Assembly: GCA_965261115.1 (NCBI GenBank) | Contig: OZ253447.1 | Location: 647,625 to 711,624, forward strand | Reading direction: 5' to 3' | Length of the DNA stretch: 64,000 bases | From: Candidatus Poribacteria bacterium | Lineage (GTDB): Bacteria; Poribacteria; WGA-4E; WGA-3G | Part shown: positions 4,397 through 59,022 of the stretch, piece by piece | Position numbering within the stretch: the first letter of the stretch is position 1 | How the letters are laid out: every line of letters begins with the position of its first letter | Notes under the pieces: model-generated | What the model saw: only the letters and a program-made list of their open reading frames with translations | Told to the model about the DNA's origin: nothing | The model's database searches: none | Position numbers and translations under genes: made by a program

Positions 4397-7300
4397 TTAC
4401 TTTCTAATTAACATTTTCCGCGTAGCAGTAAAATCACCCGCTGTTAACGTATAAAAATACAAACCACTCGCAACAGGTTCACCCACCTCATTTTTGCCGT
4501 CCCAATACGCCGCACGGACGCGACTCTCATAGATGCCAGCGACTTGATGCCCTAACGCCAACGTCCGAACCAAGCCACCATCCGCAGCATAGATACGCAC
4601 TGTCACATCCGCAGGTTCCGCAAGCTGATACGGGATCCACGTCTCCGGATTGAACGGATTCGGATAGTTCGCAAGCAACGCCGTCTTTTCGGGAAGTAAC
4701 GATGCTAAAAGTCGTTGAAGATTTTCGATGCCTTGTCGGAAAGCAACCGACCCGTCATTTTCAACCTCCGCCTGTGCGATCCATGCCTGAATCATCGCCG
4801 GATCCAATTCCGAGTTGTCTATAGCAGTAACATTGAAAGGCGCGACTCCCACAGTTGACTCACCGAAACTTTGTGCCACAACGATCAGATCTAAGACATT
4901 AATAGTGCCATCGCCGTTCACGTCCGATTGGCGGTTGACAGACGCATCAGAACCCAAGTGTTGTGCCACCAGAATCAGATCCAGAACATTTACCAAACCA
5001 TCCTGATTGACATCCGAAGCAGGATACTTGCGGTCTTCTATGGTGATAACAATTTCAGGAACTTCTGAAGGGATCGATTCACCGCCGCTGGAGCCAGCAA
5101 AGAAATTGCTAAACGTTACACGGGTTTCTCCGACAGCCTTCGCTTTGAACGTTACCAACAGCAGCGTACCTGTACCACTACCACCCCCTTTAAGCTTTGC
5201 TGTACTAATATCTGCGATTTTACCTGCTGTGTTATCAATTTCGCCTGGCAGAAAGAAGGTATCTCCAATCTTCACATTCAGAAAATCGCCTTGGCTTACC
5301 GCAACCGCTTCAAGAACAGCAGGATCAAACGAAATATCAGTCTGCCATCCTGCTAAACCAGCAACATCATTCGCATTGAGAAAGAGGCTGAAGGTATCAT
5401 CAAGCTGAACAGGTGTTACATCCGTAGAAAGGGAAAATGGTCCATCACTCACACTCACATCTAAAGACGACGGATCTCCGACAGTGATAATCATATCAGG
5501 TGGACGAGAGGAAATTGTATCACCAAGACTCGAACCCGCTTGAAACTTCCGGAGCGATAATCGACTCTCGCCATTCGCCTTCGCCGTAAATGTGACCGAC
5601 AGCAGTGTGCCTTCGCCACTCGCTCCACCTTCGGATATCCGCGCTGAACCGACACCGATGATTCTCCCTTCTGTATTATCAATCGTGCCTCTCAAAAAGT
5701 GCGTGCGTCCACCACCCTGCTTCAGAAAATTGCCCTCGCTTACGTTGTTTACGTTTACTTTTAGCACTGCCGGATCAAACTTAATATCAGTTTGCCAACC
5801 TGCTAAGTCGGAGATATTTTCCGCTTTGAGTTGAACTGTGAACGTCCCGCCAACCTTAACCTGCGTCGCCGCTGTGGAAAAGGAAAATCTGTCACCCGGA
5901 GGTAATACCGTATATTCAGCATCAGGTGCAAACCCGAAATGGGCAGCTCCCCCCCATCCTCCTTCATAATCAAAAACCGCAACTAACAAGACATTTTTTC
6001 CTTGTTTCAGCCTGACAGGGAAGGATTCCTGATAATCGCCTGCCCACTCCCCGACAAGTTGCTCGTTAACTAATTTACCATTGAGCCAGACTTTGTGGTC
6101 ATTATCGCTTCCAGCAAACATTGTCGTCTGCTGTTCCCTGTGTGAATGCAAGATAATGGAACCATACATAACTCTATGTTGGTGGCTGTCATCAATGCCA
6201 AGAGCACTCACCAATTTTCGTGTATTATGGCCATTAGGATCGATTTTATGGGAAGTCCACACATTATTTCCAACAGATTCATCTTCCGTTGCCCCTTCAG
6301 TAGCAACACTTAGTTCCGTCACTTTACCTCCGCTTGCTTGTGCCAGCAGATCTTTGCCATTGTGAAAACCTTCTCCCGGAAGTACTACCCACAACCACGG
6401 TCCTACTATCTTCGGACCTCCTTGCAGGAAATCACTCGGGTTGCCTTGCGACCTAATAATCGTCTTTTCGGACAACCCTTCCAAAGGTGAAAAGTCAGAT
6501 ATCGCATTGTTGCGGAGGTCTAACCGTTCCAAGTTAGTTAATCCGGCAAGTGCCGATACATCCGATATGATATTGTTCTCAAGATACAACACCTCCAACT
6601 TTATTAACTTCGCAAGTGGCGACACATCTTTGATAACATTAGCATCAAGATTCAGGTGTTCCAAGCCTTTTAGATTCGCCAACGGCGTTATATCGGATAT
6701 CTGGTTATTAATCAATTCTAACCATTCCAACTCGGTTAATCCTGATAGTGGGGTAAGGTCTGAGATGTTACAGTTATTGATTTCCAAACGGCGCAGTGCT
6801 TTTAAACCTTTTAGAGATGGAATAACCGATATCGACCTGTCGTTGCTAAATTCTATCCATCGAAGTCTCGGCAACTTTGCCAAAGTAGAAAAATCTGAAA
6901 TAGGCGTACGATGAGCGGCTATACCCTCCAGGCTAATTAAGCTCGCAAGGGACGACACATCCGATATAGGGTTGCCTGAAATCCCAATCCCGTTTAATTT
7001 TCTTAGGCCTCTCAGCGGAGATAAGTCTCTTATTGAGTTTTCTTCAAGTCCCAACCAGTCTACGTTGATCAAGTCAGCAAGCGGTGATACATCGGTGATC
7101 CTGTTCCCTCGTAGCTTGATGTTATTCAGTCGCGTTAAGCCTTTCAGCGGAGATAAGTCGGATATTGAATTGCGTCGAAATTCTATCCGTTCCAACTGCG
7201 TCGCAGCTTCAAGACCCGTTAAATTGCTAATCCCAGCATCATCCGCCTCAATCCGCTCCAACCTTTCCATATCTGCCGCCGTAATCAAAGCCCCAGGGGT

Positions 7301-30963: not shown

Positions 30964-31950
30964 ATGAACTTAGAAACCCAAATCCAACAATTCCGTGAAA
31001 CCTTCTACAACGTCAAATCCGAAGTCCAAAAACGCATCGTCGGCCAAGACACGATCATTGAAGGTGTACTTTTTTGCCTACTCGCCAACGGACACGCACT
31101 CCTCGAAGGCATCCCCGGCTTAGGCAAAACGCAACTCATTCACACCCTCAGCGAAGCACTCGATCTCGCTTACAAGCGTATCCAATTCACACCCGACATG
31201 ATGCCTTCGGACATCACAGGTACAACACTCCTCGTAGAAGACGAACACGGCGGAAGGCAGCTCGAATTCCAACAGGGCCCCATCTTCGCACAACTCATCC
31301 TCGCCGATGAAATCAACCGCGCCACACCGCGCACGCAATCCGCGCTCCTTGAGGCGATGCAAGAACGCACCGTCACCGTCGGACGCACCAGCCACCAATT
31401 AGAAGAACCCTTTTGTGTCCTCGCGACACAAAACCCGCTGGAGATGGAAGGCACCTATCCACTCCCAGAGGCGCAACTCGATCGGTTCCTCTTCAAACTC
31501 CTCATCGACTTCCCCAACGAAGACGAAATCGTCGAAATCCTACGCCGCACCACATCCGGCACCGATATTACCATTGACAAGGTTACGAACGCCGAAACGC
31601 TCAACGAGATGCGCCGACTTGTCCCGCAAGTCCCCATCGCCGAGCATGTCGAACGCCACATCATCCGACTCGTCCGAGCGACACACCCAGATTCCGAAGA
31701 CGCACCGGAGATCGTGAAACAATACGTCCACCTCGGCGCAGGTATCCGAAGCGTCCAAGCCATCGCCCTCACCGCCAAAATCAACGCCCTCCTCAACGAA
31801 CGCTACAACGTCGCCTTCTCGGATATTGACACTGTTTTGCTCCCCGCACTCCGCCACCGCATCCTCCTCAATTTCGAGGGACAAGGCGAAGGCATTGCAC
31901 CCGACACCATCGTCAACGAAGTCCGCAACACCATAACGCCAGCATCATAA
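30964..31950 (+). CDS. MoxR-family AAA+ ATPase
   Basis: Walker A GIPGLGKTQL, Walker B LILADEINRATP, and the characteristic SALLEAMQERTVTV motif. Confidence 0.85.
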   Translation: MNLETQIQQFRETFYNVKSEVQKRIVGQDTIIEGVLFCLLANGHALLEGIPGLGKTQLIHTLSEALDLAYKRIQFTPDMMPSDITGTTLLVEDEHGGRQLEFQQGPIFAQLILADEINRATPRTQSALLEAMQERTVTVGRTSHQLEEPFCVLATQNPLEMEGTYPLPEAQLDRFLFKLLIDFPNEDEIVEILRRTTSGTDITIDKVTNAETLNEMRRLVPQVPIAEHVERHIIRLVRATHPDSEDAPEIVKQYVHLGAGIRSVQAIALTAKINALLNERYNVAFSDIDTVLLPALRHRILLNFEGQGEGIAPDTIVNEVRNTITPAS

Positions 31951-32075
31951 CTTCGGCCCATTCGTCATTATCAAAAACACCCGAAAACGACAACTTAAAA
32001 TACTCGAATAAATTAACATCTCAGAGCCATTCAATTGTCCATCTTTCGATCAAATTTTCATCCCCAGGCCCGGTG

Positions 32076-33434
32076 TCACTTACCCCCATTTTTTTTTGAA
32101 GCGTTGTGATAAAAGGTTTTTGATGGGAAAGGTATGGGAAAGTCAGTAGGTTTATGATAAAATACCTCCTTACAACCGTCTGGGATCACAGACAAACCTA
32201 TAAAATCGTAAGGAGGTATTTTATGAAAAAGAGATACCCGAAACGGGTAAATCCAGAAACGATGATAACACGTTTTGAAGAAATATGCAAGTCTGTCGGT
32301 CTGAAAAAACCGACTTTTCGGAACTTGCTGTTCGTCTTGATAGCGATCAGTGTTGCGAAAACCTTTCGCATCAATGAGATCGCCTCGCGTTTGCCGCTTG
32401 TTGTTGCCCGGGAGAAGTCGAAACAGAAAAGATTTCTCCGCTTTCTTGACACACCCTTGCCTGTGGATGCGCTGAAGACATCCTGGTTCGCAGCGGTTCT
32501 GACTTGGTTTTCGAGGGATGCGGGGGCTGATGTGTATTTGCTCGTTGATGAGACGGATCTGATTGCGGGGTGGAAGGCACTTGTGATTTCGATCCCGTTT
32601 CGGCATCGTGCGATCCCTATCTTTTGGTTCATTTACAGCAATCAGCAGATCCGAGACGGTATCTATAAAAGTCATAACGAGATCATCCAATACTTTTCTG
32701 AGTGCGTCTATCAACAGGCTTTAGAAGTTATGTCGAAAAACAGCCAGCGTCCTGTTTTGGTATTTGACCGTGGCTTTGCCCGTGCGCAGCATGTCATCAA
32801 GTTTCTCAAGGCAAAGCATATCCGCTTCGTCATGCGGGTTTGCCGAAATGTCGGCATCATACATCATGGCAGTCGTAAGAAACTTGATGACATGCCAGAC
32901 GGATGGTATCCCGAAATCCTTTATCAGGCACAACACCAGATACCCCTGCAGCTTTATATCATTCGAGACACTGATTTCAAAGACCCAATGTATCTCATCT
33001 CAAACCACATCTGTGGACATCAGATACATCAATGCTACAAAAGACGTATGCAGATCGAACACGGATTCCGAGATATAAAGTCTTGCTTCGGATTTGGAAA
33101 ACTCGTCTTGAAAAAACCGACACAAGCACGGCTTGAGGTCTTATGGCTCTGTGCCTGTTTCGCTTATGGGTTGCTCTTTATCAGTTACGAGAAAACGGCA
33201 ACACATTGGCAGAAGTTTTACAATACAGACAAGAGAAAAAACTACTCCGTCATTACCGTTATCAAACGCATTCTCACCGATACGTGGAATACCGCGTTTC
33301 TCATCTCATTTTTCACGGATATAGACTGTAGAGGGAATCGAGTTTAGATTGCCACGCACTGACTGCTTTTCTCACACATAAACCTAACAACATCAACTAC
33401 ATTCTATACTTGAAAAAAAATGGGGGTAGGTGAC
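32076..33434 (+). mobile_element. IS4-family-like insertion sequence (~1.36 kb), imperfect 23-bp terminal IRs (GTCAC(T/C)TACCCCCATTTTTTTT), flanked by a 10-bp direct duplication CAGGCCCGGT
   Basis: IRs and duplication seen directly at 32066-32098 and 33413-33444; encloses a single DDE transposase gene. Confidence 0.7.
32223..33347 (+). CDS. IS4-family DDE transposase
   Basis: Start at MKKRYP with a perfect AAGGAGG SD (the track start at 32154 lies inside a fold-back structure). Motifs LVDETDL, VFDRGFA, and Y-x2-R-x3-E-x6-K (YKRRMQIEHGFRDIK). Confidence 0.75.
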   Translation: MKKRYPKRVNPETMITRFEEICKSVGLKKPTFRNLLFVLIAISVAKTFRINEIASRLPLVVAREKSKQKRFLRFLDTPLPVDALKTSWFAAVLTWFSRDAGADVYLLVDETDLIAGWKALVISIPFRHRAIPIFWFIYSNQQIRDGIYKSHNEIIQYFSECVYQQALEVMSKNSQRPVLVFDRGFARAQHVIKFLKAKHIRFVMRVCRNVGIIHHGSRKKLDDMPDGWYPEILYQAQHQIPLQLYIIRDTDFKDPMYLISNHICGHQIHQCYKRRMQIEHGFRDIKSCFGFGKLVLKKPTQARLEVLWLCACFAYGLLFISYEKTATHWQKFYNTDKRKNYSVITVIKRILTDTWNTAFLISFFTDIDCRGNRV

Positions 33435-33636
33435 CAGGCCCGGTAGGTTCGGTTTCCTAACCGAACCGGCTCCTTAAAAAAATGTGAAATTCAATAACTT
33501 CTTATAGTAAAATCCGAAAAATAAGTTTACACATGTAGCATAGGCTGTTAGCCTGTGCCGTAAGGGTTTGGGTGTTCAGAAGATGTATAAGAAATTAGGG
33601 AATCCACTATAAAATTGAATGGCTCTGATTAACCTC

Positions 33637-33665
33637 TTGACATCTCCTTGAACCCACACTATAAT
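33637..33665 (+). promoter_or_regulatory. Consensus sigma70-type promoter (TTGACA-N17-TATAAT) for the Fic gene
   Basis: Seen directly; overlaps the track's TTG start at 33648, which is therefore rejected. Confidence 0.6.
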
Positions 33666-33737
33666 ATAGGATTATCAAAAATTGGGAAAAATGACAACAC
33701 AAATTTTCCATTTTCAAAAAGAGGCGAAAACGGTAAT

Positions 33738-34865
33738 ATGCAAGACTTTACAGCAGGCTTGTACCGACAGCAACGAGAATACAAGAGCTTTAGCCCATCC
33801 TTCATCAACTGTCCTTTTGCCTGGGAAAACCGTCAAATAGATCAGTTGGTTGAACAAGCCGCAAATCTTTTGGGAGAACTCAAGACTTATGCGGAAATCG
33901 TCCCAGATGTCGATTTTTCGATACCAATGAGTATCGCAAAAGAAGCGATAGACTCTAATCTGATTGAAGGCACAAAAACTAAGATTGATGAGGTCGTTCT
34001 GCCACAAACAGAGATTCCAGCAATCCGACAGGCTGATTGGCAGGAAGTCCAAAATTACATTGAAGCCATGAATTTCGCGATAGCCGAACTCCCAAGAATC
34101 CCACTCTCAACGCGACTTCTCAAAGATGTCCATAAAATATTGATGTCCGGTGTTCGTGGAAGACATAAAGCACCCGGCGAAATCCGCAGAAGTCAAAACT
34201 GGATCGGCGGTGCGTCACTCGCCGACGCGCTTTTTGTCCCTCCCTCACCGGAAGAACTGCCCGATCTCCTAAGCGATCTGGAAAAATTCTGGCACAACAA
34301 ATCACTACAACTGCCCTATCTTATCAAAATCGCTATCACGCACTATCAGTTTGAAACCATTCACCCTTTCCTTGATGGAAACGGCAGATGCGGAAGACTC
34401 TTAATTGTTTTGCAACTTATCGACGCACAGTTACTTAACAAGCCTGCCCTTTATGCGTCTACCTTTTTTGAGAGAAACAAGGTTTCATATTACAATTCCC
34501 TTACCCGCGTTCGCACCGCAAATGATTTAGAACAGTGGATCGTATTTTTCTTAATCGGAATCGTCGAGACTGCCCAGCACGGACTCAAAACATTCAAAGC
34601 AATCATTGCCCTCCGTCAAGAATATGACACTAAAATCCTAACGCTCGGTGTCCGAGCGAAAAATGCCCAAAAGCTGCTTCAACATATGTATGCAACCCCC
34701 ATTGTCAACGTTAGATCCGTTGAAAAGGAGTTAGACATAAGTTTCTCAAGCGCGAACAGACTCCTAAAATCCTTGACAGCACTCGGCATCTTGAAAGAGA
34801 CCACTGGTCACTCCCGTAACCGTCTCTTCGTATTGGAAAAATACCTAAACCTCTTCAGAAGTTAG
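33738..34865 (+). CDS. Fic-family protein (Fic/DOC fold; AMPylation-type motif HPFLDGNGRCGR) with C-terminal wHTH-like region
   Basis: Canonical Fic motif HPFLDGNGRCGRLL; the N-terminal region resembles the common Fic N-domain (...SIAKEAIDSNLIEGTKT...). Confidence 0.8.
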   Translation: MQDFTAGLYRQQREYKSFSPSFINCPFAWENRQIDQLVEQAANLLGELKTYAEIVPDVDFSIPMSIAKEAIDSNLIEGTKTKIDEVVLPQTEIPAIRQADWQEVQNYIEAMNFAIAELPRIPLSTRLLKDVHKILMSGVRGRHKAPGEIRRSQNWIGGASLADALFVPPSPEELPDLLSDLEKFWHNKSLQLPYLIKIAITHYQFETIHPFLDGNGRCGRLLIVLQLIDAQLLNKPALYASTFFERNKVSYYNSLTRVRTANDLEQWIVFFLIGIVETAQHGLKTFKAIIALRQEYDTKILTLGVRAKNAQKLLQHMYATPIVNVRSVEKELDISFSSANRLLKSLTALGILKETTGHSRNRLFVLEKYLNLFRS

Positions 34866-34898
34866 CGAACCCCACACAAAAATGAGGAAATTATAACG

Positions 34899-35483
34899 AT
34901 GAGGACATCCCAAGCATATTTCACGCCCGAAGAATACATCACTTTAGAACGCAAAGCAATCCCTGACGCTGAGATAGTTAGAAGCGAATATATCAACGGT
35001 AAAATAATTGGAAGATCCAGTTCTAACTGGGCACACAATGTTATTACAGGCAACATTGTCGCTGGACTTTACACCCGTTTCAGAAACAGGGGATGCTTCG
35101 TATTTGCCAACGAAATGCGTGTCAGTATTCCAGCAGCAAATTCCTATTTTTATCCCGATGTCGGCGTTGTCTGTGAAGAACCCCGTTTTGAAGACGATGT
35201 TCTTGACATACTCCTCAACCCCATAGTCGTCGTAGAAGTGCTTTCTCCGTCAACAGAGGCTTACGACAGAGGCGACAAATTCGCACACTACCGCCAACTC
35301 CAATCCTTACAAGAATACATCCTCGTCTCCCAAGACAAGGTCCGTGTCGATCACTACGTCCGACACGCAACACAATGGATCCTCACCGACTTCCAAGAAC
35401 TGGAGCAACACCTTCCACTCACCTCAATCCAATGCGAACTTCCCCTACAAGAGATATACGAAAACGTCCCGTTCCCTGAATAG
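34899..35483 (+). CDS. Uma2-family (DUF820) putative restriction-endonuclease-like protein
   Basis: Classic Uma2 pattern: ...YINGKII...HNVITGNIVAGLYTRFRNRGCFVFANEMRVSIP...YFYPDVGVVCEE...; GAGGA SD. Confidence 0.75.
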   Translation: MRTSQAYFTPEEYITLERKAIPDAEIVRSEYINGKIIGRSSSNWAHNVITGNIVAGLYTRFRNRGCFVFANEMRVSIPAANSYFYPDVGVVCEEPRFEDDVLDILLNPIVVVEVLSPSTEAYDRGDKFAHYRQLQSLQEYILVSQDKVRVDHYVRHATQWILTDFQELEQHLPLTSIQCELPLQEIYENVPFPE

Positions 35484-35540
35484 CACCGATAGCCCCTGCC
35501 ACATTGACAAGACTTCCGAAATGGTCTTATTTTTTCTCCT

Positions 35541-36242
35541 TCAGTGCTTTTGGGTTTTGGGTGTGATGTCTATTGCGTCTTGCTCGGTGTTGATGGCGTT
35601 GCAGGCGACGAGGGTTTTTAGGATTTGATGTGCCAAAGTTACGTGTTTCGTGGCTTCTTCGGTGTCTTCTGCTTGGAAGATGCATTGTTTCTGGTATCCG
35701 TAGAGGGTTTCTAATTCTTGGGCGATGTTTGTAGAGGTCGTGAGGTTCAAGGTGCGGTAATTGGCGCAGAATTCGTCTCGAGTTTGGTTGAAGAGGTCGC
35801 GGTATTTCTCAGGAAATTGACGGTGGTTGATGTCCAAGCGTCGGAATTGATTGAAGAGTTCTTGCCGGAGCTGCCTTTGATGATCCGCACGTTCTTTGGT
35901 ATAATGAAGCTTGTAATTTCTGATGTATCTGCCTTCACGATAAGTATCGAACGCCGCGAGGGCACTCTCATTGAGTTTATCATCCGCGTCCTTACCGTAT
36001 TTTTCGTCGAAAGCCTTCAGATGTTTCTTAAAGTACGCCGCGATAAATTCAGATCTGCTGCTGAGTTCGCTGTCGTTGAGGGGTTCAGCCATAATTTGAT
36101 CAATATCGAGCGTCTCTGGGATTCCGAGGGGTGGCAGTTCGTCTTCAAATTCTTCAATGAATGCGTCAATGATGTCGGTTAATTTCATAAAACGTGCGTA
36201 GGATATGACGACAAATTGTTTGTGTTTCTCTTTGAGTTTCAT
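35541..36242 (-). CDS. Hypothetical protein (233 aa)
   Basis: AAAGGAG SD 8 nt before the ATG; no recognisable domain; TGCGTAAGTCCT motif ~20 nt upstream. Confidence 0.5.
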   Translation of the reverse strand: MKLKEKHKQFVVISYARFMKLTDIIDAFIEEFEDELPPLGIPETLDIDQIMAEPLNDSELSSRSEFIAAYFKKHLKAFDEKYGKDADDKLNESALAAFDTYREGRYIRNYKLHYTKERADHQRQLRQELFNQFRRLDINHRQFPEKYRDLFNQTRDEFCANYRTLNLTTSTNIAQELETLYGYQKQCIFQAEDTEEATKHVTLAHQILKTLVACNAINTEQDAIDITPKTQKH

Positions 36243-36749
36243 GTGTGGACTCCTTTAAATCAGGACTTACGCATTTTTCCATGATAACGGACGTCCGACG
36301 CACTGCAGGCGGGGTTTGAAACCCCGCCTGCAGTGGGGGCTGCGTAAGTCCTATAAATAAAATTGGGCTTACGGAAAAAGCAGTAATTTCGGTATTTTTA
36401 AACCCCCTAAATCCCCCTTATCAGGGGGACTTTAAGAGGATGTGCGTAAGTCGTAAAAATGTTACACCAGTGTAACATTTGGGATGAATAGGTTATCGGT
36501 CTAAACTTAGTGGTTGTAAGGGTTTAGAGGCGATTTTGTTGTTGCCGTAAAAAAGAAAAAATGGCGAAAAGTGTAACATTTGGTTTAGCGGTTAACCATC
36601 AGCAGTTAGAAAAATGGTTAGGTTTATGATTTAGATGTTTTAACTTAATTTGAGTTTATATTTTATATAATACCATATATAATATAGGGAGGCAAATTTA
36701 TTTTTTAGGGCTTACAACTGAATGCCCCTGATGAAGAATGAAATCGCGC

Positions 36750-36778
36750 TTGACAAACGTGGGTTCATAAGTTAATAT
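36750..36778 (+). promoter_or_regulatory. Sigma70-like promoter (TTGACA-N17-TAATAT) in a 900-bp non-coding region
   Basis: Seen directly. Confidence 0.45.
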
Positions 36779-36784
36779 TAATTA

Positions 36785-36916
36785 GAGAAACTGAGGTTTG
36801 AGTTCCGGTCGTATCTGGAACGCTATTTTAAAATCAAACACGCTTAAGACTTACACAGGTTGCTCTTTTGTAGCATAGGCTGTTAGCCTGTGCCCTGAGA
36901 ACGTCTCTGTTTTTTG
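36785..36916 (+). ncRNA. Candidate small non-coding RNA (~130 nt) between the promoter at 36750 and a hairpin plus T6 tract at ~36896-36916; contains the 26-nt hairpin repeat TGTAGCATAGGCTGTTAGCCTGTGCC
   Basis: Promoter and weak terminator seen directly; no ORF with an SD inside; the identical 26-mer recurs at 33534-33559. Confidence 0.25.
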
Positions 36917-37149
36917 AGAGTTTATCCGCTGACGGAGCGTCATATCGTCAAAATTGCGTAAATCCTGCACGCTTATAGAAAGACAGAATTCAATTGTGGC
37001 GATATTCTACCGAGGCGCGGGAATTGGTACTTACTGGCATATTCATGATGCAAGACAGACCGGATTCATCGCACGGGCACCCGAATTGTGTGAACCATCG
37101 TTTTGAGGTTTATTAACTGGACACCTGCACACAAATCGGAGAAACCGTC

Positions 37150-37509
37150 ATGTCGAAATATCAGACACAGCCTATTAAGATGGATCCTTATCAGATCCAG
37201 ACTGTTTCTCTCAAGGAACTTGTATCCGACAGTAAATTAATAAAGTTCCTGAGAGTAGAAATACCTTACGGAAAGGCGTATGGACGGATTCCATTCGCTC
37301 GGGTCCTCTACGCTTTTAACGGCGTTGAACAAAAAAAGGCAGTTCCGATGGATCTCGATAAGGGCGCATTTAGTGACAGCAGTTTCGAGAATGTATTTGA
37401 CGATGAAGAACTCGAAAAAACGTTCCGCGAAATTGCCCCTGACGTTTTTCGCAACGCTGCACCACAAATCGTTGAAGCAGTTAGCAAAGCCGCCTCTTCA
37501 AAACGGTAA
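37150..37509 (+). CDS. Hypothetical protein (119 aa) upstream of the RM-like operon
   Basis: GGAG SD; no recognisable domain. Confidence 0.5.
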   Translation: MSKYQTQPIKMDPYQIQTVSLKELVSDSKLIKFLRVEIPYGKAYGRIPFARVLYAFNGVEQKKAVPMDLDKGAFSDSSFENVFDDEELEKTFREIAPDVFRNAAPQIVEAVSKAASSKR

Positions 37510-37591
37510 GACAAACGGATTAGTAGGCTTTTAATCTTGACTTTGCTGCTGGCGAACGTTGCTACCTCACCATTTTGCATACAATTTTTTC

Positions 37592-37621
37592 TTGACACCA
37601 CCAACAAAATTTTGCTACAAT
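37592..37621 (+). promoter_or_regulatory. Sigma70-like promoter (TTGACA-N18-TACAAT) upstream of the three-gene RM-like operon
   Basis: Seen directly ~50 nt upstream of the ATG at 37670. Confidence 0.45.
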
Positions 37622-37669
37622 TAACGGGCAATCTAAACTTTCGCTTTCAGAGAACGAGACAAGAAAAAT

Positions 37670-38710
37670 ATGCAAGAATCTTTACAAAAATTACAAGAGT
37701 TGCTCCAGAAACTCTTCCGTGCTGATGCTGCCGATCTCAACTTCGGTATCTACCGCATTATCAACTACCGACGAGACCAGATCCAAAAATTCATTGACGA
37801 GGAACTCCCCACCATCGTCCAAAACGCGCTTGAGGCAAACACCGAAGCAGAATCTGCACACGAACGGATTACCGAACTTGAGAATCAAGTTCGAGAATTA
37901 GGTAATAATCTCGGAGAGGAAATGTTGGATGCCGATGGAAATCTCGTCAACGAGGTCTATAGAGAAAGACCTCTCATCCAGCAATACCTTGAAGCAAGAG
38001 AACAACTCGGCTCCCCGCAAACTCAAGACCAGCGCGCTCATGCTGTCTATAACCACCTCTATACCTTCTTCTCCCGCTACTACGAAGACGGCGACTTCAT
38101 CCCGCGCCGACGTTACTCCCAAACCGAACGCTACGCCGTCCCATACAACGGTGAAGAAGTCTACCTCCACTGGGCAAACAAAGACCAATATTATGTCAAA
38201 AGCGGAGAGCATTTCTCCACCTACAGATTCACATCTCAAGGCATCACTGTCACTTTTGACCTCCAAAACGCAGATGTCGAAAAAGATAACGTCAAAGGTG
38301 AAAAACGTTTCTTTATCCCCATACCTGCTAAGACAATCTATAAACCAGAAACCGATGAGGTTAGCATCCCATTTGAATACCGTCCACTCACCGACGAAGA
38401 AAAGAAAAAATACAGTGGTCAAAAGCAACAGGACAAAATTATTGAAGCCGCTGAATCTGAAATCATGAGATGCCTGACCAGTCATTACAATGCCCTATCC
38501 GCATTAGATCACCAAACGGAAGGCGAAACTACCCTCAAAAAGCACCTCCGCACCTATACACGCCGCAACACCGCTGACTTCTTCATTCACAAAAATCTCA
38601 GGCAGTTCCTCAACCGCGAACTGGATACCTACATCAAAAACGAAGTCATCCGTATATCTGACCTAATTTTAACGAACGTTAATACAGAATTAAGCAGGGG
38701 GAGGGCGTAA
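37670..38710 (+). CDS. Unrecognised 346-aa protein encoded immediately upstream of mod; possibly an N-terminal extension of Mod separated by a frameshift
   Basis: ORF ends at 38710. The mod reading frame is already open from 38683, and a single G insertion in the G5 tract at 38697-38701 would join the two frames. No known motif recognised. Confidence 0.5.
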   Translation: MQESLQKLQELLQKLFRADAADLNFGIYRIINYRRDQIQKFIDEELPTIVQNALEANTEAESAHERITELENQVRELGNNLGEEMLDADGNLVNEVYRERPLIQQYLEAREQLGSPQTQDQRAHAVYNHLYTFFSRYYEDGDFIPRRRYSQTERYAVPYNGEEVYLHWANKDQYYVKSGEHFSTYRFTSQGITVTFDLQNADVEKDNVKGEKRFFIPIPAKTIYKPETDEVSIPFEYRPLTDEEKKKYSGQKQQDKIIEAAESEIMRCLTSHYNALSALDHQTEGETTLKKHLRTYTRRNTADFFIHKNLRQFLNRELDTYIKNEVIRISDLILTNVNTELSRGRA

Positions 38711-38739
38711 CTGAAGTATTAACTAATAGTAATAATTGG

Positions 38740-40794
38740 TTGGAAACCGCGAAACTCGTCCACACCATCGCCACCCAAATTATTGAATTTCTCTCCCACA
38801 TTGAAGAATTCCAAAAACGTCTCTGGCTAAAAAAGAAATTTGTCCTTTCTACCGACTACTGCTTCACACTTGACCGCGTCCCAGAAGAATTTTATTTAGA
38901 AATCGCACAGAACACCGATCAACTTGAGGAGTGGAAAGACCTCTTTGCTATTCACGAAATAGACAACAACCTCATTGATGCCCACTACACCGAACCACCC
39001 TCCGTTGAATTCCTGAAAGAAAATCCGAACCTTGTTTTGGATACCTGCCACTTTGATTCAGACTTCAAGGATCGCCTCTTGGCGAATTTTGACGATCTGG
39101 ACAACGAGACAGATGGCTTGTTAATACACAGTGAGAACTTTCAGGCGTTAAATCTGTTGATAGAAAAATACCGCGAATCACTAAAAGCTATCTATATTGA
39201 TCCGCCCTATAATACTGATGCCTCAGCAATTCTTTACAAAAACAATTACAAAGATTCATCGTGGATGTCGTTGATGGCAGATCGGATTGCAGTCTCCCAC
39301 GGATTGTTGGCAGATAATGGCATCTTTTGTGCAGCGATTGACGATGTAGAAGCAGCCAATCTAAGACATCTACTCCAAAATCTCTTTGGGAACGAGAATG
39401 AACTCGGAATTGTTGCAGTTTGTTCCAATCCAGCAGGTCGTCAAAGACCCACAGGCTTTGCCCCTGCTCATGAATACGCTATGTTTTTCAGTCAAACCCA
39501 AACAGCACAAGTCGGCCGCCTTGAACGAACAGAAGAACAACTCGAGAACTCAGAAATTGATGAACAAGGTCGCTACTTCACATGGAGAGGACTTAGGAAT
39601 GGCGGAGGTCCCAACGCTCTGCGTGGTGCCCGGCCTCGTTTGTTCTATCCACTTTTTGTGAGGAATGATCAAATTCGCATTCCCAACATGGAATGGGATA
39701 GCGAGACCCGACAATGGGATCTCTTGGAATCGCCGAATCTTGGTGAAATAGAAGTATTACCAATTAGACCTGATGGTGAAGAGATGACGTGGAGGTATGG
39801 AATTGAGACCTTACAAAGAAGACTATCAGAAACTATTGCGAGAAGTGACCAGAATGGTAATATTCGGATTCTTGTTAAACGGTATCTAAACGAAGAAGGC
39901 ATGCTACCCAAGACATGGTGGGGTAAAACAGAGTACTCATCAACGCAATATGGAACCATTTTTTTAACAAATATGCTGGGTGATAGTCTCGCATTCATGT
40001 TCCCTAAATCTATTCACCTCGTTGAAGATTGTCTGAGTGTTTCTTCCCTCGGTAAAGATGATATTGTACTTGATTACTTTGGAGGATCTGGGACTACCGC
40101 CCACGCAACTATCAACCTAAATCGCCAAGACGATGGAAAGCGTAAATACATTCTTATTGAGATGGGACATCACTTTGATACCGTTCTTAAACCGCGTATC
40201 AAGAAAGCCATTTACGCCGAAAAATGGAAGGATGCTAAACCCATCTCTTGTGAGAATCAGCTCTCCCAAATCATCAAATATCAACGCATTGAATCTTACG
40301 AAGATGCCCTCAACAACATCGAATTCAACAAAACTGAACATGAGGATATCCTGCTAACTGCCGAACATCAATTAAGTTATCTGTTCGGCAGTGAAACGCG
40401 CGAAAGTCTAACGTTCCTTAACATTTCCGAACTCCAAAATCCGTTCAGTTATCAACTTAATATCGTCAAAGATATGCAGACGCAGAAACAGTCTGTCGAT
40501 TTACCGGAAACCTTCAACTACCTTCTCGGTATCTCAGTGCAAACTCGTCAATGTCTGAATGATGATGATAGACGTTATCTTGTCTACAAAGGTACAATTG
40601 GGCAAAAACCAGTCGTTATTATCTGGCGTGAAACCGCAGGCTGGAAACAAAAAGATTGGGAACGTGATTACCAGTTCATCGAAGAAAATAAACTCACAGA
40701 AGGCGCAGCAAAAGTCTATGTCAACACAGATAGCATCGTTCCAGAGGCAGAATCCTTAGATCCGCATTTTAAACGACTGATGTTTTCACAATAA
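38740..40794 (+). CDS. Type III restriction-modification Mod-like beta-class N6-adenine DNA methyltransferase
   Basis: Motif IV AIYIDPPYNT near residue 155, followed later by motif I VLDYFGGSGTTAHA (beta-class order as in EcoP15I Mod). Only a TTG start and no SD, see findings. Confidence 0.8.
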   Translation: METAKLVHTIATQIIEFLSHIEEFQKRLWLKKKFVLSTDYCFTLDRVPEEFYLEIAQNTDQLEEWKDLFAIHEIDNNLIDAHYTEPPSVEFLKENPNLVLDTCHFDSDFKDRLLANFDDLDNETDGLLIHSENFQALNLLIEKYRESLKAIYIDPPYNTDASAILYKNNYKDSSWMSLMADRIAVSHGLLADNGIFCAAIDDVEAANLRHLLQNLFGNENELGIVAVCSNPAGRQRPTGFAPAHEYAMFFSQTQTAQVGRLERTEEQLENSEIDEQGRYFTWRGLRNGGGPNALRGARPRLFYPLFVRNDQIRIPNMEWDSETRQWDLLESPNLGEIEVLPIRPDGEEMTWRYGIETLQRRLSETIARSDQNGNIRILVKRYLNEEGMLPKTWWGKTEYSSTQYGTIFLTNMLGDSLAFMFPKSIHLVEDCLSVSSLGKDDIVLDYFGGSGTTAHATINLNRQDDGKRKYILIEMGHHFDTVLKPRIKKAIYAEKWKDAKPISCENQLSQIIKYQRIESYEDALNNIEFNKTEHEDILLTAEHQLSYLFGSETRESLTFLNISELQNPFSYQLNIVKDMQTQKQSVDLPETFNYLLGISVQTRQCLNDDDRRYLVYKGTIGQKPVVIIWRETAGWKQKDWERDYQFIEENKLTEGAAKVYVNTDSIVPEAESLDPHFKRLMFSQ

Positions 40795-40812
40795 ATCCGC
40801 AAAACAACTGCT

Positions 40813-43800
40813 ATGCCCAAAAGAAACAACTCACAACGCACACTTGACAACCATCTTACGCTCCACGGATGGCTCAACAGCCATTTCGGGTATAAAACCA
40901 CGCGCGACCTACTTAACGATGTCGTAAGACTTGATGAGGGATTCAGCCCAGATGGACACTCTCCAATCTGCGAATTTCTTATGTCCCTTCCAGATTTAAA
41001 GTATGGAATTGAGGATACTTTACCAATCTATGATTCCAATATCAAAAAGCATCTGTCTGCCATAAATAACAAACGCACACAACCAATCGTCCTCCGTTAC
41101 TTTCAATACCTTGCACTCCTCTATACTGAAATTTTTTTAGATTGGAAATTCAACAGACCGGGTGAATTTCTACGTCAACTTAATATGTTTGTCCAACGCC
41201 GTAATGATGCCAGAGCTCCGAGCGATGCCATGGATACAAACTTCACAAACGCGGATCTCGATAAACTCGCTTTCTGGATGGCAACCGGTGCAGGCAAAAC
41301 CCTCATCATGCACATCAACTACCATCAATTCCTACACTACTGCAAAGACGAAGAAACTCTTGACCATGTCATTCTTATCACACCCAACGAAGGGTTGAGT
41401 GAGCAACATATACGCGAACTTGCCAACTCCGGCATTCGGTGTGAACGTTTTAACATTGAACGAAATCGCTTGGCGAGTACGCATGAGGCAGTACAGGTAA
41501 TCGAAATAACAAAATTAGTAGAAGAAAAAACCGGTGGTGGTTTGAGCGTTCCGGTTGAAGCATTTGAGGGAAACAACCTCATTTTTGTAGATGAAGGTCA
41601 CAAAGGTAGCGGTGGAAAAGTCTGGCGAACTTACCGAGAAGCACTCGCCGAAACCGGTTTCACCTTTGAATATAGTGCGACTTTCGGACAAGCACTTGCA
41701 GCCGCGAGAAACGCAGACCTTGTTGAAGAATATGGAAAAGCCATCGCCTTTGACTATTCATATCGATACTTCTACGAGGATGGACATGGCAAGAACTTCC
41801 GTGTCCTTAACGTTCACCACGATGAAGAGTCCCAAACCGAAACACTCCTTTTAGCCAATCTTCTCAGCTTTTACGAACAGCGATGCTATTTCAAGCAAGA
41901 ACGCGACGCGGTGCGTGATTACGGATTAGATTCACCCTTATGGACATTCGTTGGAAGTAAAGTTAATGCTGTCTATACTGAGAACAGCCGTTCCCGCTCT
42001 GATGTCCTTAACGTTATTCGTTTTCTGCACCGGTTTCTAAAAAACGAAGAAAATTGGGCAACCGATACCATCGAGAAGATTCTCAACGGTGATTCCGGCT
42101 TATCGGATGACGGCACTGATGTTTTCCACAACCGTCTCAACTATCTCAGAAACCTCCGTGAAACGCCAGCGCAAATCTATACTGGTATCCTCGATGAAGT
42201 ATTTCACACCAACGCAAGCGGCGCATTACACCTACAAGATGTTCGAAATGCGCAAGGCGAAATTGCATTGAAAACTACTCACGGCACGGAAAACTTTGGT
42301 CTCATCTACATTGGGGATACCACTGCCTTCAAAAAACTTGTCAATAGCGATAATGCAGGTATTGAAACAGAGTCCGAAGATGTACTGACGGAAAGCCTTT
42401 TTAACAACATCAACACTTTCGATAGTCCAATTAATATCTTGATTGGCGCGAAAAAATTCATTGAAGGATGGGACAGTTGGCGTGTCACCGCGATGGGACT
42501 ACTAAACATCGGTAGGCAGGAAGGCTCTCAAATTATCCAATTGTTCGGTCGGGGTGTTCGCTTACGCGGCAAAAACATGAGCCTCAAACGCAGTGCTGCT
42601 CTTGACGGCGAGCATCCGCCTAATCTACCTCTCTTGGAAACCTTAAATATTTTCGCTGTCCGTGCCAACTTCATGGCACAATTCCGAGATTACCTCATGC
42701 GTGAAGGCATAGAACTCGATGAACCTATCCAAATGGAGATTCCAATCGTCTCTAACGACAGTTTCCTCGCGCATCAGCTCTTCGTCCCAAACGTTCTTCC
42801 ATACGACGAAGCTGCCAAAGGACAGTGTGTTCCCCTCGTAGTTAATATCAATGCTTACATCACTCATACGACGCAAATCGTTGAGGTTATCGGGAGCAGT
42901 ACACAACAAGGCATCCGAGGGAGTAGATCAACGGCAGCCTTGGAACGTAAAATTCCAGAAGAAAGTCTGAAATTGGTAGACTGGGAAAAAATCTACCTGC
43001 ATCTGATTGAATACAAACACGAACAGCAATTTCACAACCTCATCTTTGACATCCAGACCCTTAAGACAATTATGGAGCCATCTCAAGAACTGTACGGGCT
43101 CACCGTCATGGCAGAATCCGAAGTCAAGCCAACATCGTTGGAAGAGGTCACTCGCTTAGAGGAATTAGTGATTACACTCCTCCGCAAGTATATCGCCAAA
43201 TTTTATCGCATCATTCAGAAGCAGTGGAGTAGCAACAGGGTGAGGTTGAAAACATTAGACGAAGATGATGCTAATTTCACAGATTGGAGTGTCCACATTC
43301 CCCGAGACGAAGCACAGGAACTCGAGCCACAAATTCAACACCTCATAGAGAGTGGTGAAATATACGGACCGAATGTAACAGATTTCCCCAACGCCTACAA
43401 CGATAGGCACTTATATCAACCACTCCTCGCGATAACCAATGCCAACGATTCGTGGCGAATCGCACCACCGGCTCTGGAAGAAAGCGAACAACAATTTGTA
43501 AAAGATTTGCGTCTTTACATCCGCCAGCAACGCGAAGAACATTTCAAAGAAAAAGAGATGTTCCTCTTACGCAACCAGAGTCGAGGCAAAGGTATCGGCT
43601 TTTATCAGAATGAAGGCTTTTATCCCGACTTTATTCTCTGGATAACCAAAGGAGCAAAGCAGCGTATTGTTTTCATCGAACCTCACGGTATGGTGCATGA
43701 CGCGGTTAACGAGCACAACGACAAAATCACCCTTTTTAAAAGACTCCGTACCGTTTCTTATGAACGCTTCCGCGGTGAACACGTGCAAATGGACTCCTTT

Positions 43801-43956
43801 ATCATCTCAAAAACTGACTTTCAAGTTCTCCGCCGCAGAGAAGGTATGGAGAGACAGGAATTTGCAGATGAATGGCACATCCTCTTCCGCACCGAAGCAG
43901 ATCCAAGTTACCTCTCTCCAATTTTCCAAGAACCAGATCATGACTCCACGCCGTAG
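40813..43956 (+). CDS. Type III restriction enzyme Res-like subunit (SF2 helicase plus C-terminal PD-(D/E)xK-like nuclease region)
   Basis: Walker A MATGAGKT, motif II FVDEGHKG (DEAH-like), motif VI QLFGRGVRLRG. C-terminal YPDFILW...IVFIEPHG resembles the Res endonuclease motif but with E-P-H in place of E-x-K. Confidence 0.75.
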   Translation: MPKRNNSQRTLDNHLTLHGWLNSHFGYKTTRDLLNDVVRLDEGFSPDGHSPICEFLMSLPDLKYGIEDTLPIYDSNIKKHLSAINNKRTQPIVLRYFQYLALLYTEIFLDWKFNRPGEFLRQLNMFVQRRNDARAPSDAMDTNFTNADLDKLAFWMATGAGKTLIMHINYHQFLHYCKDEETLDHVILITPNEGLSEQHIRELANSGIRCERFNIERNRLASTHEAVQVIEITKLVEEKTGGGLSVPVEAFEGNNLIFVDEGHKGSGGKVWRTYREALAETGFTFEYSATFGQALAAARNADLVEEYGKAIAFDYSYRYFYEDGHGKNFRVLNVHHDEESQTETLLLANLLSFYEQRCYFKQERDAVRDYGLDSPLWTFVGSKVNAVYTENSRSRSDVLNVIRFLHRFLKNEENWATDTIEKILNGDSGLSDDGTDVFHNRLNYLRNLRETPAQIYTGILDEVFHTNASGALHLQDVRNAQGEIALKTTHGTENFGLIYIGDTTAFKKLVNSDNAGIETESEDVLTESLFNNINTFDSPINILIGAKKFIEGWDSWRVTAMGLLNIGRQEGSQIIQLFGRGVRLRGKNMSLKRSAALDGEHPPNLPLLETLNIFAVRANFMAQFRDYLMREGIELDEPIQMEIPIVSNDSFLAHQLFVPNVLPYDEAAKGQCVPLVVNINAYITHTTQIVEVIGSSTQQGIRGSRSTAALERKIPEESLKLVDWEKIYLHLIEYKHEQQFHNLIFDIQTLKTIMEPSQELYGLTVMAESEVKPTSLEEVTRLEELVITLLRKYIAKFYRIIQKQWSSNRVRLKTLDEDDANFTDWSVHIPRDEAQELEPQIQHLIESGEIYGPNVTDFPNAYNDRHLYQPLLAITNANDSWRIAPPALEESEQQFVKDLRLYIRQQREEHFKEKEMFLLRNQSRGKGIGFYQNEGFYPDFILWITKGAKQRIVFIEPHGMVHDAVNEHNDKITLFKRLRTVSYERFRGEHVQMDSFIISKTDFQVLRRREGMERQEFADEWHILFRTEADPSYLSPIFQEPDHDSTP

Positions 43957-44117
43957 AGAAAATTTACAGATTCTTAGGCATCTCATTTTGCGTAAGTCCT
44001 AAAAATCCTATAAATCTTGATCCGACAATCCAAGTAAAATTTCATAGCAACTTTCAACAACCGTCCCCCTAAAACCATCGAAAACGTAGTTGTGGATTGG
44101 GTTCGAGGCACTTCATA

Positions 44118-44159
44118 AATTTCATAGTTTTCCGTATTTGCTATGAAAACTATGAAATT
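44118..44159. other. Perfect 15-bp inverted repeat AATTTCATAGTTTTC / GAAAACTATGAAATT separated by 12 bp, ~170 bp downstream of res
   Basis: Seen directly; followed by TTTTAC. Could be a terminator hairpin or an operator-like palindrome. Confidence 0.4.
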
Positions 44160-44402
44160 TTACACCACTTTACGGCACTGTTGATAAGGTTCATAGACGA
44201 TTGATAAACGACCCAGGGCCATTCAATTCTCTGGAAAACAGCTAAATTCCCTTATGATTTTGGCATCCCTAAACACGAAAATCCGCGTTCTCCGCGTTCT
44301 CCGCGTTCTCCGCGATTCAGACAATTTGAAAATTGAATCCCTCTGATAAACGACAGTATTTCCCTTGCCACCACCAACGAATTGTGCTAAAATACACACA
44401 GC

Positions 44403-45785
44403 ATGAACCAACACGACCGAAAACACCCACATAAAGAACTCCGCGCCCTCCTCGGAACACGTTTCAGCACAGACGATGCCATCCGAGACGCGCACGCACG
44501 CGATGCCTCATACCATCAAGGCGCGCTCCCAGAGGCAGTCGTCTTCCCGAAAACCAACGCCGAAGTCGCAAATATTGTCAGAATCTGTGCAAAACATAAG
44601 ATACCGATCATCCCTTACGGCACCGGCACCGGCGTTGAAGGCGCAGTCGTCGCAACCGAAGGCGCGCTCTGCATCGCACTCAACGAAATGAACCGCATCT
44701 GCCGCGTCAGTCCAAACGACAGAGATGCTACTGTCGAAGCAGGCGTAACCCGTCTCCAACTGAACACGCATCTCGCAGACATCGGCACACAACTCCACTT
44801 CTCCGTCGATCCGGGTGCAGATGCCTCGTTAGGCGGGATGGTCGCAACCCGCGCATCCGGCACGAGTGCCGTCCGATACGGTACAATGCTCGATAACGTC
44901 CTCAGCTTGACCGTCGTCACTGCGGACGGCTCTATTGTTCACACCGGCAGCAGAGCCAGAAAATCCGCCGCAGGCTATGATCTGACACGTCTCTTTATCG
45001 GCTCAGAAGGCACACTCGGGATTATCACCGAAATCACACTCAAATTGACAAGGTTGCCGGAAGCCGTTGCCTCCGCGGTCTGTGCTTTCCCAACCATAGC
45101 CGCAGCCGTAGACACCGTTATCAAACTAATAGATGCAGGTGTCAGCATTGCCCGTATCGAACTACTGGACGAACAGCAGATGGATGCCGTCAACAAATAC
45201 GCAGGATTAGATTACGAAGTCGCACCGACGCTCTTTTTTGAGTTCCACGGGTCTGAACACGCGGTTGCCGAAAGCTCTGAGATCGCCGGTAAAATCGCAG
45301 CAGCACACGGCAGCGGCGATTTCCGATGGGCAACAGACGACAACGAACGCAAACGGCTCTGGCAAGCCCGATACGATAGCTACTACGCCGCACTCAATCG
45401 TCGTCCGGGTTCCGTCGGCTACGTAACCGATGTGTGTGTCCCGATCTCTCAACTCGCCGAATGTATCGCAAAAACGAAAGCGCGCCTCGCCACATCGGAG
45501 CTTGTTCCCTCAATCCTTGGACACGTCGGTGACGGAAACTTTCACGTCGTTTTCCCACTTGAACCCAACAACAAGGACGAATTAGCAGAAGCGCAGCGAC
45601 TCAGCGATCAGATTGTAGACATCGCCTTAGAGATGGACGGCACTTGCACAGGCGAACACGGTGTCGGTGTCGGTAAACGGAACGCATTAGAGAAGGAACA
45701 CGGAGAGGCAGTAGACCTGATGCGTGCAATCAAACACGCCTTGGATCCACAAAACTTAATGAATCCGGGCAAAGTCTTTCTGTAA
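44403..45785 (+). CDS. FAD-linked oxidase (GlcD / D-lactate dehydrogenase-like, PCMH-type FAD-binding domain)
   Basis: VVFPKTNAEVANIVRICAKHKIPIIPYGTGTGVEGA FAD-binding region; C-terminal FAD-oxidase domain (GTCTGEHGVGVGKR). Confidence 0.75.
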   Translation: MNQHDRKHPHKELRALLGTRFSTDDAIRDAHARDASYHQGALPEAVVFPKTNAEVANIVRICAKHKIPIIPYGTGTGVEGAVVATEGALCIALNEMNRICRVSPNDRDATVEAGVTRLQLNTHLADIGTQLHFSVDPGADASLGGMVATRASGTSAVRYGTMLDNVLSLTVVTADGSIVHTGSRARKSAAGYDLTRLFIGSEGTLGIITEITLKLTRLPEAVASAVCAFPTIAAAVDTVIKLIDAGVSIARIELLDEQQMDAVNKYAGLDYEVAPTLFFEFHGSEHAVAESSEIAGKIAAAHGSGDFRWATDDNERKRLWQARYDSYYAALNRRPGSVGYVTDVCVPISQLAECIAKTKARLATSELVPSILGHVGDGNFHVVFPLEPNNKDELAEAQRLSDQIVDIALEMDGTCTGEHGVGVGKRNALEKEHGEAVDLMRAIKHALDPQNLMNPGKVFL

Positions 45786-57828: not shown

Positions 57829-59022
57829 ATGCTACATTCAGAATATGATGTCATTGTTGTTGGCGCGGGCCCCGGGGGTTCCATCGCTGCAAAAGTTGCC
57901 GCTGAAAATGGATTACGAGTACTCCTCTTAGAGAAACGCCAAGAAATTGGGACCCCTGTTCGCTGAGCAGAGGGTATTGGCACAGAGGCTCTGTGCGAAT
58001 TTATTCAACCGGACCCAGCATGGGTGTCCCGCGAGATGGACGGGGCGCGCTTCTTTTCACCGAATGAAACTGCTGTGACATTTCATCATCCAGAGATAGG
58101 TTATGTGCTGGAACGGAAGGTCTTTGATCGAGCAATTACAGAAATGGCAGCAACCGCTGGTGCTGAAGTGATGGTTAAAGCCCGCGTCACAAACACCACT
58201 TTCTCTGATGAGGGTACTGTGAACGGTGTCGTGTTCCGATATTCAGGACGTGAGTACACTTGTAAAACGAAGGTAGTCATTGCATCGGATGGTGTCGAAT
58301 CACAGGTCGGTCGATGGGCAGGCATTGATACAACCCATCAACTGCGTGAGGTAGGAATCTGTGCCCAATATCTGATATCAAATATTGATATCAGACCCGA
58401 GTACTTTGACTTCTACTTCGGACACCAAGTCGCACCACGCGGCTATGTCTGGGTATTTCCAAAAGGTGATGACATCGCTAATGTTGGCATCGGTATTGGT
58501 GGCGCTATTTCAGGCAAAGGTGGCAAACTCGCCATAGATTATTTGAACGAGTTTGTCAAACGAAAATTTCCAGAGGGTAAAATTTTAGGGCTGGTGTGCG
58601 GAGCCGTTCCTGTTGGGCAAAGCTTGTCTCAACTCGTCGCGGACGGCATTTTAATTGTAGGTGACGCAGCGCACCACAGCGATCCAATGTCTGGTGGCGG
58701 CATCGCTAACGCAATGTATTCAGGAAAATTCGCCGCCGAAGCCGCAGCCGACGGTATTCACAGTGGTGATGTCACTGAAAAAGCACTCTCGGCATATACA
58801 AAACGCTGGAATAGAGAATTCGGCAAGCATTTTAAAAATATCTGTCGCATCCGAGATGGTATCATCAAATTTAGTGACGAAACGCTTGATAAATATACAG
58901 AAACACTTTCTAAAATCCCCACCGAACAGATAACAATGGCGAAGATTTTCCAAACACTGCTGATGCACCAGCCCCGTTTGCTTTTTGAACTCCGCCATCT
59001 CATTCTGGCAGGATGGATTTAG
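57829..59022 (+). CDS. Geranylgeranyl-reductase-family FAD-dependent oxidoreductase with in-frame TGA (codon 46) at the conserved Cys position; candidate selenoprotein, or pseudogene/sequencing error
   Basis: ATG at 57829 with AAAGAGAG SD: [45 protein letters not shown]-[TGA 57964-57966]-AEGIGTEAL... The track ORF 58024..59022 (GTG start) is the same frame continued. Total 397 codons, typical for GGR/ChlP. Confidence 0.6.

Follow-up and report, generated by a model that had tools for sequence, protein, structure and literature searches.

We describe here a Type III R-M (restriction-modification) operon of Candidatus Poribacteria and the frameshift that divides its methyltransferase gene, mod. 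The operon lies in a 64-kb stretch of contig OZ253447.1, referred to below as the window; related loci carry L-numbers and homologous proteins P-numbers. An earlier interpretation drawn from the letters of the window (the sequence-only reading) had placed three co-oriented genes behind one promoter: gene A, without a recognizable motif; gene B, a Mod; and gene C, a Res. The three open reading frames (ORFs) and their coordinates hold (Table 1), but the three-gene operon does not, since gene A and Mod appear from their homologues to be one gene; the region is a two-gene Type III R-M operon, mod and then res. The promoter is a consensus match only, although it is the best match to the sigma-70 consensus (11/12) within positions 36200-44500.

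Table 1. Features of the R-M operon and of its surroundings, in window coordinates
Feature	Position	Strand	Basis or remark
Promoter-like site, TTGACA-18-TACAAT, TG before -10	37592..37621	+	sigma-70 consensus match
Predicted N-terminal module of long-form Type III Mod (gene A), 346 aa, ATG	37670..38710	+	ORF; TAA end created by frameshift
Linker insert holding the tract, between peptide repeats LTNVN (38669-38686) and LTNSN (38719-38736)	38669..38736	+	comparison with relatives
Degenerate simple-sequence repeat GGGGGAGGG (G5AG3), frameshift site	38697..38705	+	one base below in-frame length
GGGGG	38697-38701	+	sequence
Mod core frame, open from 38683	38683..40794	+	PF01555
Mod ORF, TTG, 684 aa	38740..40794	+	ORF
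Res subunit, ATG, 1047 aa	40813..43956	+	PF04851 ResIII
Res superfamily 2 (SF2) motifs	GAGKT 41287-41301, DEGH 41590-41601	+	motif positions
Res C-terminal nuclease-like motif	YPDFILW 43621-43641, FIEPHG 43672-43689	+	motif alignment
MoxR	30964..31950
Low-GC insert (0.42-0.46)	32000..37600		between MoxR and the R-M operon
DDE_Tnp_1 transposase	32154..33347		low-GC insert
Fic/DOC protein	33648..34865		low-GC insert
Uma2-family protein	34899..35483		low-GC insert
DUF2280-like ORF	35541..36242	-	low-GC insert
119-aa ORF without match	37150..37509		low-GC insert
Geranylgeranyl-reductase-like ORF, 397 codons	57829..59022	+	GGR_cat, FAD_binding_3 domains

The res product contains a ResIII/SF2 domain (PF04851, E = 4e-11) with GAGKT and DEGH motifs, matches the PADLOC REase_III profile (E = 1.5e-156), and keeps the nuclease-like C-terminal signature YPDF(I/V)LW...F(I/V)(E/D)PHG; gene C had been called a Res-like SF2 helicase-nuclease, and its nuclease function is putative. 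In this signature, 33 of 35 homologues have His in place of the Lys of PD-(D/E)xK, Lys being found only in L039 and L061. The mod gene lies directly upstream in the same orientation, 18 nt from res; wherever a related locus had enough sequence, res likewise stood 3' of mod, with an insert between the two in a few cases.

The Mod core was assigned to PF01555 (E = 3e-24), carries DPPY (39199-39210) ahead of FGGSGTT (40078-40098), which is the motif order of the beta class, and matched by sequence the PDB entries for Mbo45V (7dsu), H. pylori Mod (6k0w), and EcoP15I Mod (4zcf), bearing out the identification of gene B as a clear beta-class Mod. The central region of the core, presumably the target recognition domain (TRD), differs among alleles.

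Gene A proved to be as featureless in profile searches as the sequence-only reading had found it: neither Pfam, NCBIfam, nor PHROG gave a match, and no PDB fold match was obtained. An AlphaFold2 model built from a 66-sequence alignment had a predicted local distance difference test (pLDDT) score of 73 and combines a helical bundle with a middle rich in beta structure and with additional helices. A model of full-length Mod was mediocre (pLDDT 66), and its residues 332-356, equivalent to the linker insert of Table 1, scored below 50.

When the conceptual fusion of gene A to Mod was used as the query, at least 116 homologues of 1013-1063 aa were retrieved, with 98-100% query coverage and 67-83% identity; those with a named source came from Candidatus Poribacteria and were labelled "site-specific DNA-methyltransferase." One such fused homologue, P0001, matched the 1057-position PADLOC MTase_III profile PDLC03646 with E = 1.9e-174. 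A search with gene A against one genome per species returned 80 loci, the Poribacteria at 67-86% identity and distant ones at 35-50% identity in Latescibacterota, Dehalococcoidia, Armatimonadota, haloarchaea, Suttonella, and Sulfurihydrogenibium. Some 50 of the related loci that had enough sequence carry one ORF of 950-1180 aa, and the order N-terminal module, Mod core, Res was kept wherever contig extent allowed. An exhaustive HMMER search found the module in 2033 clusters at 50% identity, 742 of them at E <= 1e-30, always at residues ~1-340 of proteins mostly 1000-1090 aa long. The module is conserved to the same degree as the catalytic core; of all 30-residue blocks of the protein, the linker that joins them is conserved least.

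Altogether, judged by homology, gene A is the N-terminal part of one mod gene of ~1040 codons (1041 codons here) and not a separate gene, the fused Mod of ~1040 aa being the norm. The same comparisons indicate that the N-terminal module is an integral, strongly conserved part of a long-form Mod family. The sequence-only reading had anticipated an uncharacterized extension of a Type III system, which is right insofar as no function has been described; the extension is not rare, however, but belongs to a large family filed under "site-specific DNA-methyltransferase" or Type III methyltransferase.

The two parts meet at a short G-rich tract. As the sequence-only reading had proposed, the Mod frame is open well ahead of its TTG, and insertion of one G into GGGGG yields a 1041-aa ORF that reads ...LSRGEGVTEVLTNSNNWLETAKLVHT... 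across the junction. The G5 run alone is unremarkable, with 23 such runs and none of six or more Gs in the 64 kb of the window; the site is significant only through comparison with relatives. Among these, three linker types were found: a short one, read as ILTNENLGWLETAK in relatives without the insert; a repeat-free one, LIFxDxNFQEDxLTKVNWIETAK; and a tract-bearing one, read as ILTNVNSELSRGGGVTAVLTNSNNWLETAK, in which the tract stands between the duplicated LTNVN and LTNSN. The latter peptides are encoded by the imperfect 18-bp direct repeat that had been reported to flank the junction. The repeat is present and its peptide is conserved in relatives, but its copies are identical at only 12/18 positions and were not recovered by an automated repeat search. 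The tract-bearing linker appears to have arisen as a small duplication or insertion within a loop that is disordered in the structural model, and the simplest reason for the position of the repeat is that such a loop tolerates poly-Gly at any length.

Comparison of junctions among Poribacteria relatives revealed repeats of several kinds at this same site. Out-of-frame junctions were found in the window (G5AG3), L001 (G8), L007 (G9), L002, L006, and L014 (each G10), L099 (G12), L100 (G13), L101 ((AG)11), and L102 ((AG)14); those with in-frame repeats were L084 (G10), L005 (G5AG5), and L012 ((AG)9); and the junctions without a repeat, in L003, L004, and L008-L011, were all in frame. The stretch from GAATTAA to CGTAAC measures 12 nt in out-of-frame alleles (GCA+G5AG3 in the window, ATGC+G8 in L001) and 13 nt in in-frame alleles (GCA+G10 in L084, AC+G5AG5 in L005). 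L084, the only true relative among 18 loci returned by a flank-pattern scan of metagenomes, has the same flanks as the window, which differs from it by one base fewer and an A inside the run. The shift needed to restore the frame is +1 nt in the window, L001, L002, L006, and L100 and -1 nt in L007, L014, and L099.

In a sample of loci not picked by ORF length, the repeat-bearing junctions were in frame (ON) in 3 cases and out of frame (OFF) in 6, and all six repeat-free junctions were ON (Fisher p = 0.028). The 3:6 ratio is near the 1:2 that free drift in tract length would give. Only six G/C runs of at least 8 were present in 214 kb of Poribacteria loci, and 5 of the 6 lay exactly at the junction. 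Two further G runs were noted in or near the operons of relatives: L014 has a G8 (6096-6103) amid G-rich sequence some 1.9 kb upstream of mod, and L005 a G7 (2168-2174) within its Mod core, just ahead of a premature stop at 2233.

Proteins gave a similar picture. In a search with the gene-A protein, ~85 of 119 homologue clusters were ORFs of 330-365 aa that stop a few codons past poly-Gly, with tails in both wrong frames ("...GGA*" and "...GGGRNCSINQ*"), and a few short homologues end after RERERE or THTHTH, corresponding to (AG)n and (CA)n tracts. The short:long counts in these lists were considered as an ON:OFF ratio and rejected: none of the listed proteins exceeds 630 aa although full-length ones exist at 86% identity, and the ranking is therefore length-biased. 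Close pairs differ in state or tract length. L099 and L100, from two assemblies whose accession numbers are adjacent, share 99.83% identity over 1769 nt, their sole gap being G12 versus G13, and the N-terminal modules of fused P0005 and split P0193 are 95.5% identical. One 4.25-Mb Poribacteria contig, ERZ25069580, holds paralogous copies of the N-terminal module plus Mod about 12 kb apart (L101, 4001-7124; L102, 4001-7160), with N-terminal modules 100% identical, tracts that differ ((AG)11 versus (AG)14), and both copies out of frame. Each copy is followed by an inverted ORF of ~330 aa without a Pfam match, and a 1062-aa ORF, also without a Pfam match, lies between them.

The ORFs downstream of the tract are intact in the loci compared. 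The ratio of nonsynonymous to synonymous substitution rates (dN/dS) between the window and relatives was 0.09-0.16 for the N-terminal module, the Mod core, and Res alike, OFF-versus-OFF pairs included, with synonymous sites near saturation; the Mod core has thus been translated for most of its history. No conserved restart codon was found in the out-of-frame loci. The Mod frame has its first possible start codon +100 to +127 codons in, within conserved sequence, in L001, L006, L007, and L100, and the gene caller sets the Mod starts of L100, L101, and L102 at 380-660 nt downstream. The TTG at 38740, which the sequence-only reading had given as the only start of Mod, was rejected as a designed start: the conserved WLETAK helix of the Mod core begins at 38737, the TTG is its Leu codon, one codon past the conserved Trp, the corresponding codon in L001 is CTG, and the remark that a Shine-Dalgarno sequence is absent holds.

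The following explanation would account for these results. The long form of mod is predicted to encode an N-terminal module of ~340 residues, a disordered linker, and a beta-class N6-adenine methyltransferase core, and in one sub-lineage of Candidatus Poribacteria the linker holds a simple-sequence repeat, poly-G in most cases, that would be hypermutable. Slipped-strand mispairing at replication would alter the length of this tract, an in-frame length giving full-length Mod (ON) and other lengths ending translation a few codons past the tract, with only an N-terminal fragment made (OFF). Type III Res depends on Mod for target recognition, as in EcoP1I and EcoP15I; OFF should therefore silence methylation and restriction together and be harmless to the cell. 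The window would carry an OFF allele that is one base short and has a G-to-A interruption, in which a return to frame through +1 slippage, within either G5 or G3, may be expected to be much rarer than in the G9-G13 of relatives. Since both downstream ORFs are intact, the event would be recent or still slowly reversible.

We hold with good confidence, on the strength of these sequence comparisons, that the junction repeat in relatives mediates slipped-strand phase variation and that the window represents an OFF allele, recently frozen or slowly switching. The sequence-only reading had named Mod phase variation at a homopolymer as one of four options, and it is the best fit, given repeats at the same site, both wrong frames, the G12/G13 pair, and purifying selection. 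As an active switch, the homopolymer of the window itself did not stand: G5AG3 appears to be a decayed remnant, below the length expected for fast switching, and the allele probably switches slowly or not at all. A survey of Type III mod genes took G9 or longer, or at least 5 dinucleotide units, as potentially phase-variable and quoted switching rates of ~1e-3 for G9 (PMC5909438). Mononucleotide tracts of that length are present in L002, L006, L007, L014, L084, L099, and L100 (G9-G13), and dinucleotide tracts in L012, L101, and L102 ((AG)9-14). For this organism, we infer switching, the loss of restriction when OFF, and a slower rate at the interrupted tract.

Several points weigh against this interpretation. 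G5AG3 falls below the survey's tract length, and switching in this organism is unsupported by its own sequence alone. The frame state of the window was read from an assembled consensus alone, the comparison sequences are all metagenome assemblies, and the apparent bias of the homologous-protein lists to short proteins leaves them without a true ON:OFF ratio. Every sequencing platform is prone to errors in long runs of G, and some ON/OFF calls and the G12/G13 gap could therefore be assembly noise.

Such error could also have produced the split in the window itself, the genome really having G6AG3 or G5AG4 and an intact 1041-codon mod. The error site would be a homopolymer, the 6.67-Mb source contig occurs once in the protein collection, the nearest relatives are all Poribacteria metagenome-assembled genomes (MAGs), and other such MAGs have frameshifts or stops in mod away from repeats (L013, L027). 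However, with only G5 and G3 the runs are short for errors of the consensus, the 64 kb, where ORFs reach 1932 aa, showed no other split gene, the independent short-read assembly L001 shares the OFF frame and the 12-nt spacing, and "...SRGGA*" protein tails occur in other assemblies too, all of which makes an artefact improbable. More weight is due to irreversible pseudogenization, in which mod is beyond recovery and res, left without its partner, would decay in turn: reversion becomes much less likely with the G-to-A interruption, the low-GC insert with its transposase, Fic, and Uma2 genes adjoins the locus, and decayed copies exist elsewhere, in the same L013 and L027. Nonetheless, the Mod core (684 codons) and Res (1047 codons) are both intact, with no further lesions, and we regard permanent loss as somewhat unlikely; it differs from a slowly switching OFF allele only in degree, that is, in how recently the gene was frozen and whether it can revert.

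Two further explanations leave the split genotype as a functional design. Programmed recoding, by -1 ribosomal frameshifting or RNA-polymerase slippage, would give the 346-aa protein and full-length Mod at a set ratio, and it would suit the fact that out-of-frame genotypes are common yet their downstream parts are under purifying selection. Long homopolymers can cause transcriptional slippage, and some leaky rescue of the G9-G13 OFF alleles may occur; G5AG3 is too short for efficient RNA-polymerase slippage. In addition, the X XXY YYZ heptamer is absent from the zero frame of the window at this site (AGC AGG GGG AGG GCG TAA), L084, L005, and L012 are in-frame alleles, and a uniform programmed frameshift was rejected because relatives need shifts of opposite sign and because the tract varies in length and in type (G, AG, CA). 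Recoding is, in our judgment, highly improbable. Least credible is a genuine two-gene arrangement, in which the N-terminal module and the Mod core are separate polypeptides that assemble and the TTG is the true start of Mod. The place of the TTG just past the conserved Trp and the free-standing N-terminal module ORFs of many relatives speak for it, but it is hard to reconcile with the character of that codon and the remote Mod-frame starts described above, and repeat-free relatives are all fused.

It is a long shot, but OFF may free the conserved 340-residue N-terminal module to exert an activity of its own, for example by binding Res or DNA or by regulating the system. On this two-state view, the recurrence of poly-G, (AG)n, and (CA)n in the same linker would reflect selection for that split point, the cell toggling between two functional states.

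Upstream, the low-GC insert separates the operon from MoxR. A Uma2 gene is located directly 5' of mod in L004 and L007 too, and the housekeeping neighbours GFO_IDH_MocA and MoxR were also found upstream of the operon in L100. Elsewhere in the window, the geranylgeranyl-reductase-like ORF contains an in-frame TGA at 57964-57966 (motif GTPVR*AEG), with a perfect 7-bp hairpin, GCACAGA-GGC-TCTGTGC, starting 16 nt past it. We take this position to be usually a conserved Cys in related reductases, and the TGA may encode selenocysteine or represent a nonsense mutation.

For annotation, the findings suggest that the "hypothetical protein" and the short methylase listed side by side in Poribacteria genomes are one gene, the same mis-split being present in >80 protein clusters of public data. 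They also point to contingency-locus behaviour, i.e., stochastic on/off switching of restriction and of the methylome, in large-genome uncultivated sponge symbionts, which, if confirmed, would give a handle on phage-defence heterogeneity within sponge microbiomes. In addition, they flag a large unnamed family of N-terminal domains of Type III Mods, with the 2033 clusters counted above. No report of phase-variable R-M in Poribacteria or other sponge symbionts was found in the literature searches made. Slippage at a repeat is a well-known mechanism of phase variation in Type III mod genes; new are the host clade, the long-form Mod, and a repeat in an interdomain linker.

The operon resembles those of EcoP15I and EcoP1I in having mod followed by res, a beta-class N6-adenine methyltransferase with DPPY before FxGxG (Mod structure 4zcf), and a Res made of an SF2 helicase and a C-terminal, here putative, nuclease region. 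Unlike them, its Mod has ~350 extra N-terminal residues (~470 up to the methyltransferase core) that match nothing in Pfam or PDB, and the predicted nuclease motif of Res is PD...(E/D)-P-H, not (D/E)xK, in all but two of the homologues. Similar in architecture are operons on Klebsiella/E. coli IncF and haloarchaeal plasmids, which carry this N-terminal module too (36-45% identity across residues 16-332), in a fused Mod of ~1046 aa followed by a large helicase-nuclease; these long-form Mods are annotated generically as "DNA methyltransferase." That of the E. coli IncF plasmid NZ_CP018955.1 (L103, 27985-42956) is 1046 aa long and 36% identical, and matches similar to it were found on 11 Klebsiella plasmids. 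Its operon reads helix-turn-helix (HTH) regulator, SNF2-related protein (987 aa), Mod, DEAD/DEAH helicase (1120 aa), the first two genes being additions upstream that the window lacks.

Known Type III mod genes subject to phase variation likewise have a simple-sequence repeat within the mod ORF of a mod-res operon, and in these too a change of frame turns the gene on or off, close relatives differ in tract length, and the TRD varies. The Poribacteria genes differ in that their hosts are uncultivated bacteria with 4-7-Mb genomes and not small-genome pathogens, and in that Mod is the ~1040-aa long form. At least three repeat types occur at the same site, and the tract of the window is interrupted and short of the survey length. 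Finally, the repeat lies ~340 codons into the gene, within a disordered linker inserted between two domains that are both conserved, so that OFF would leave a complete N-terminal module.

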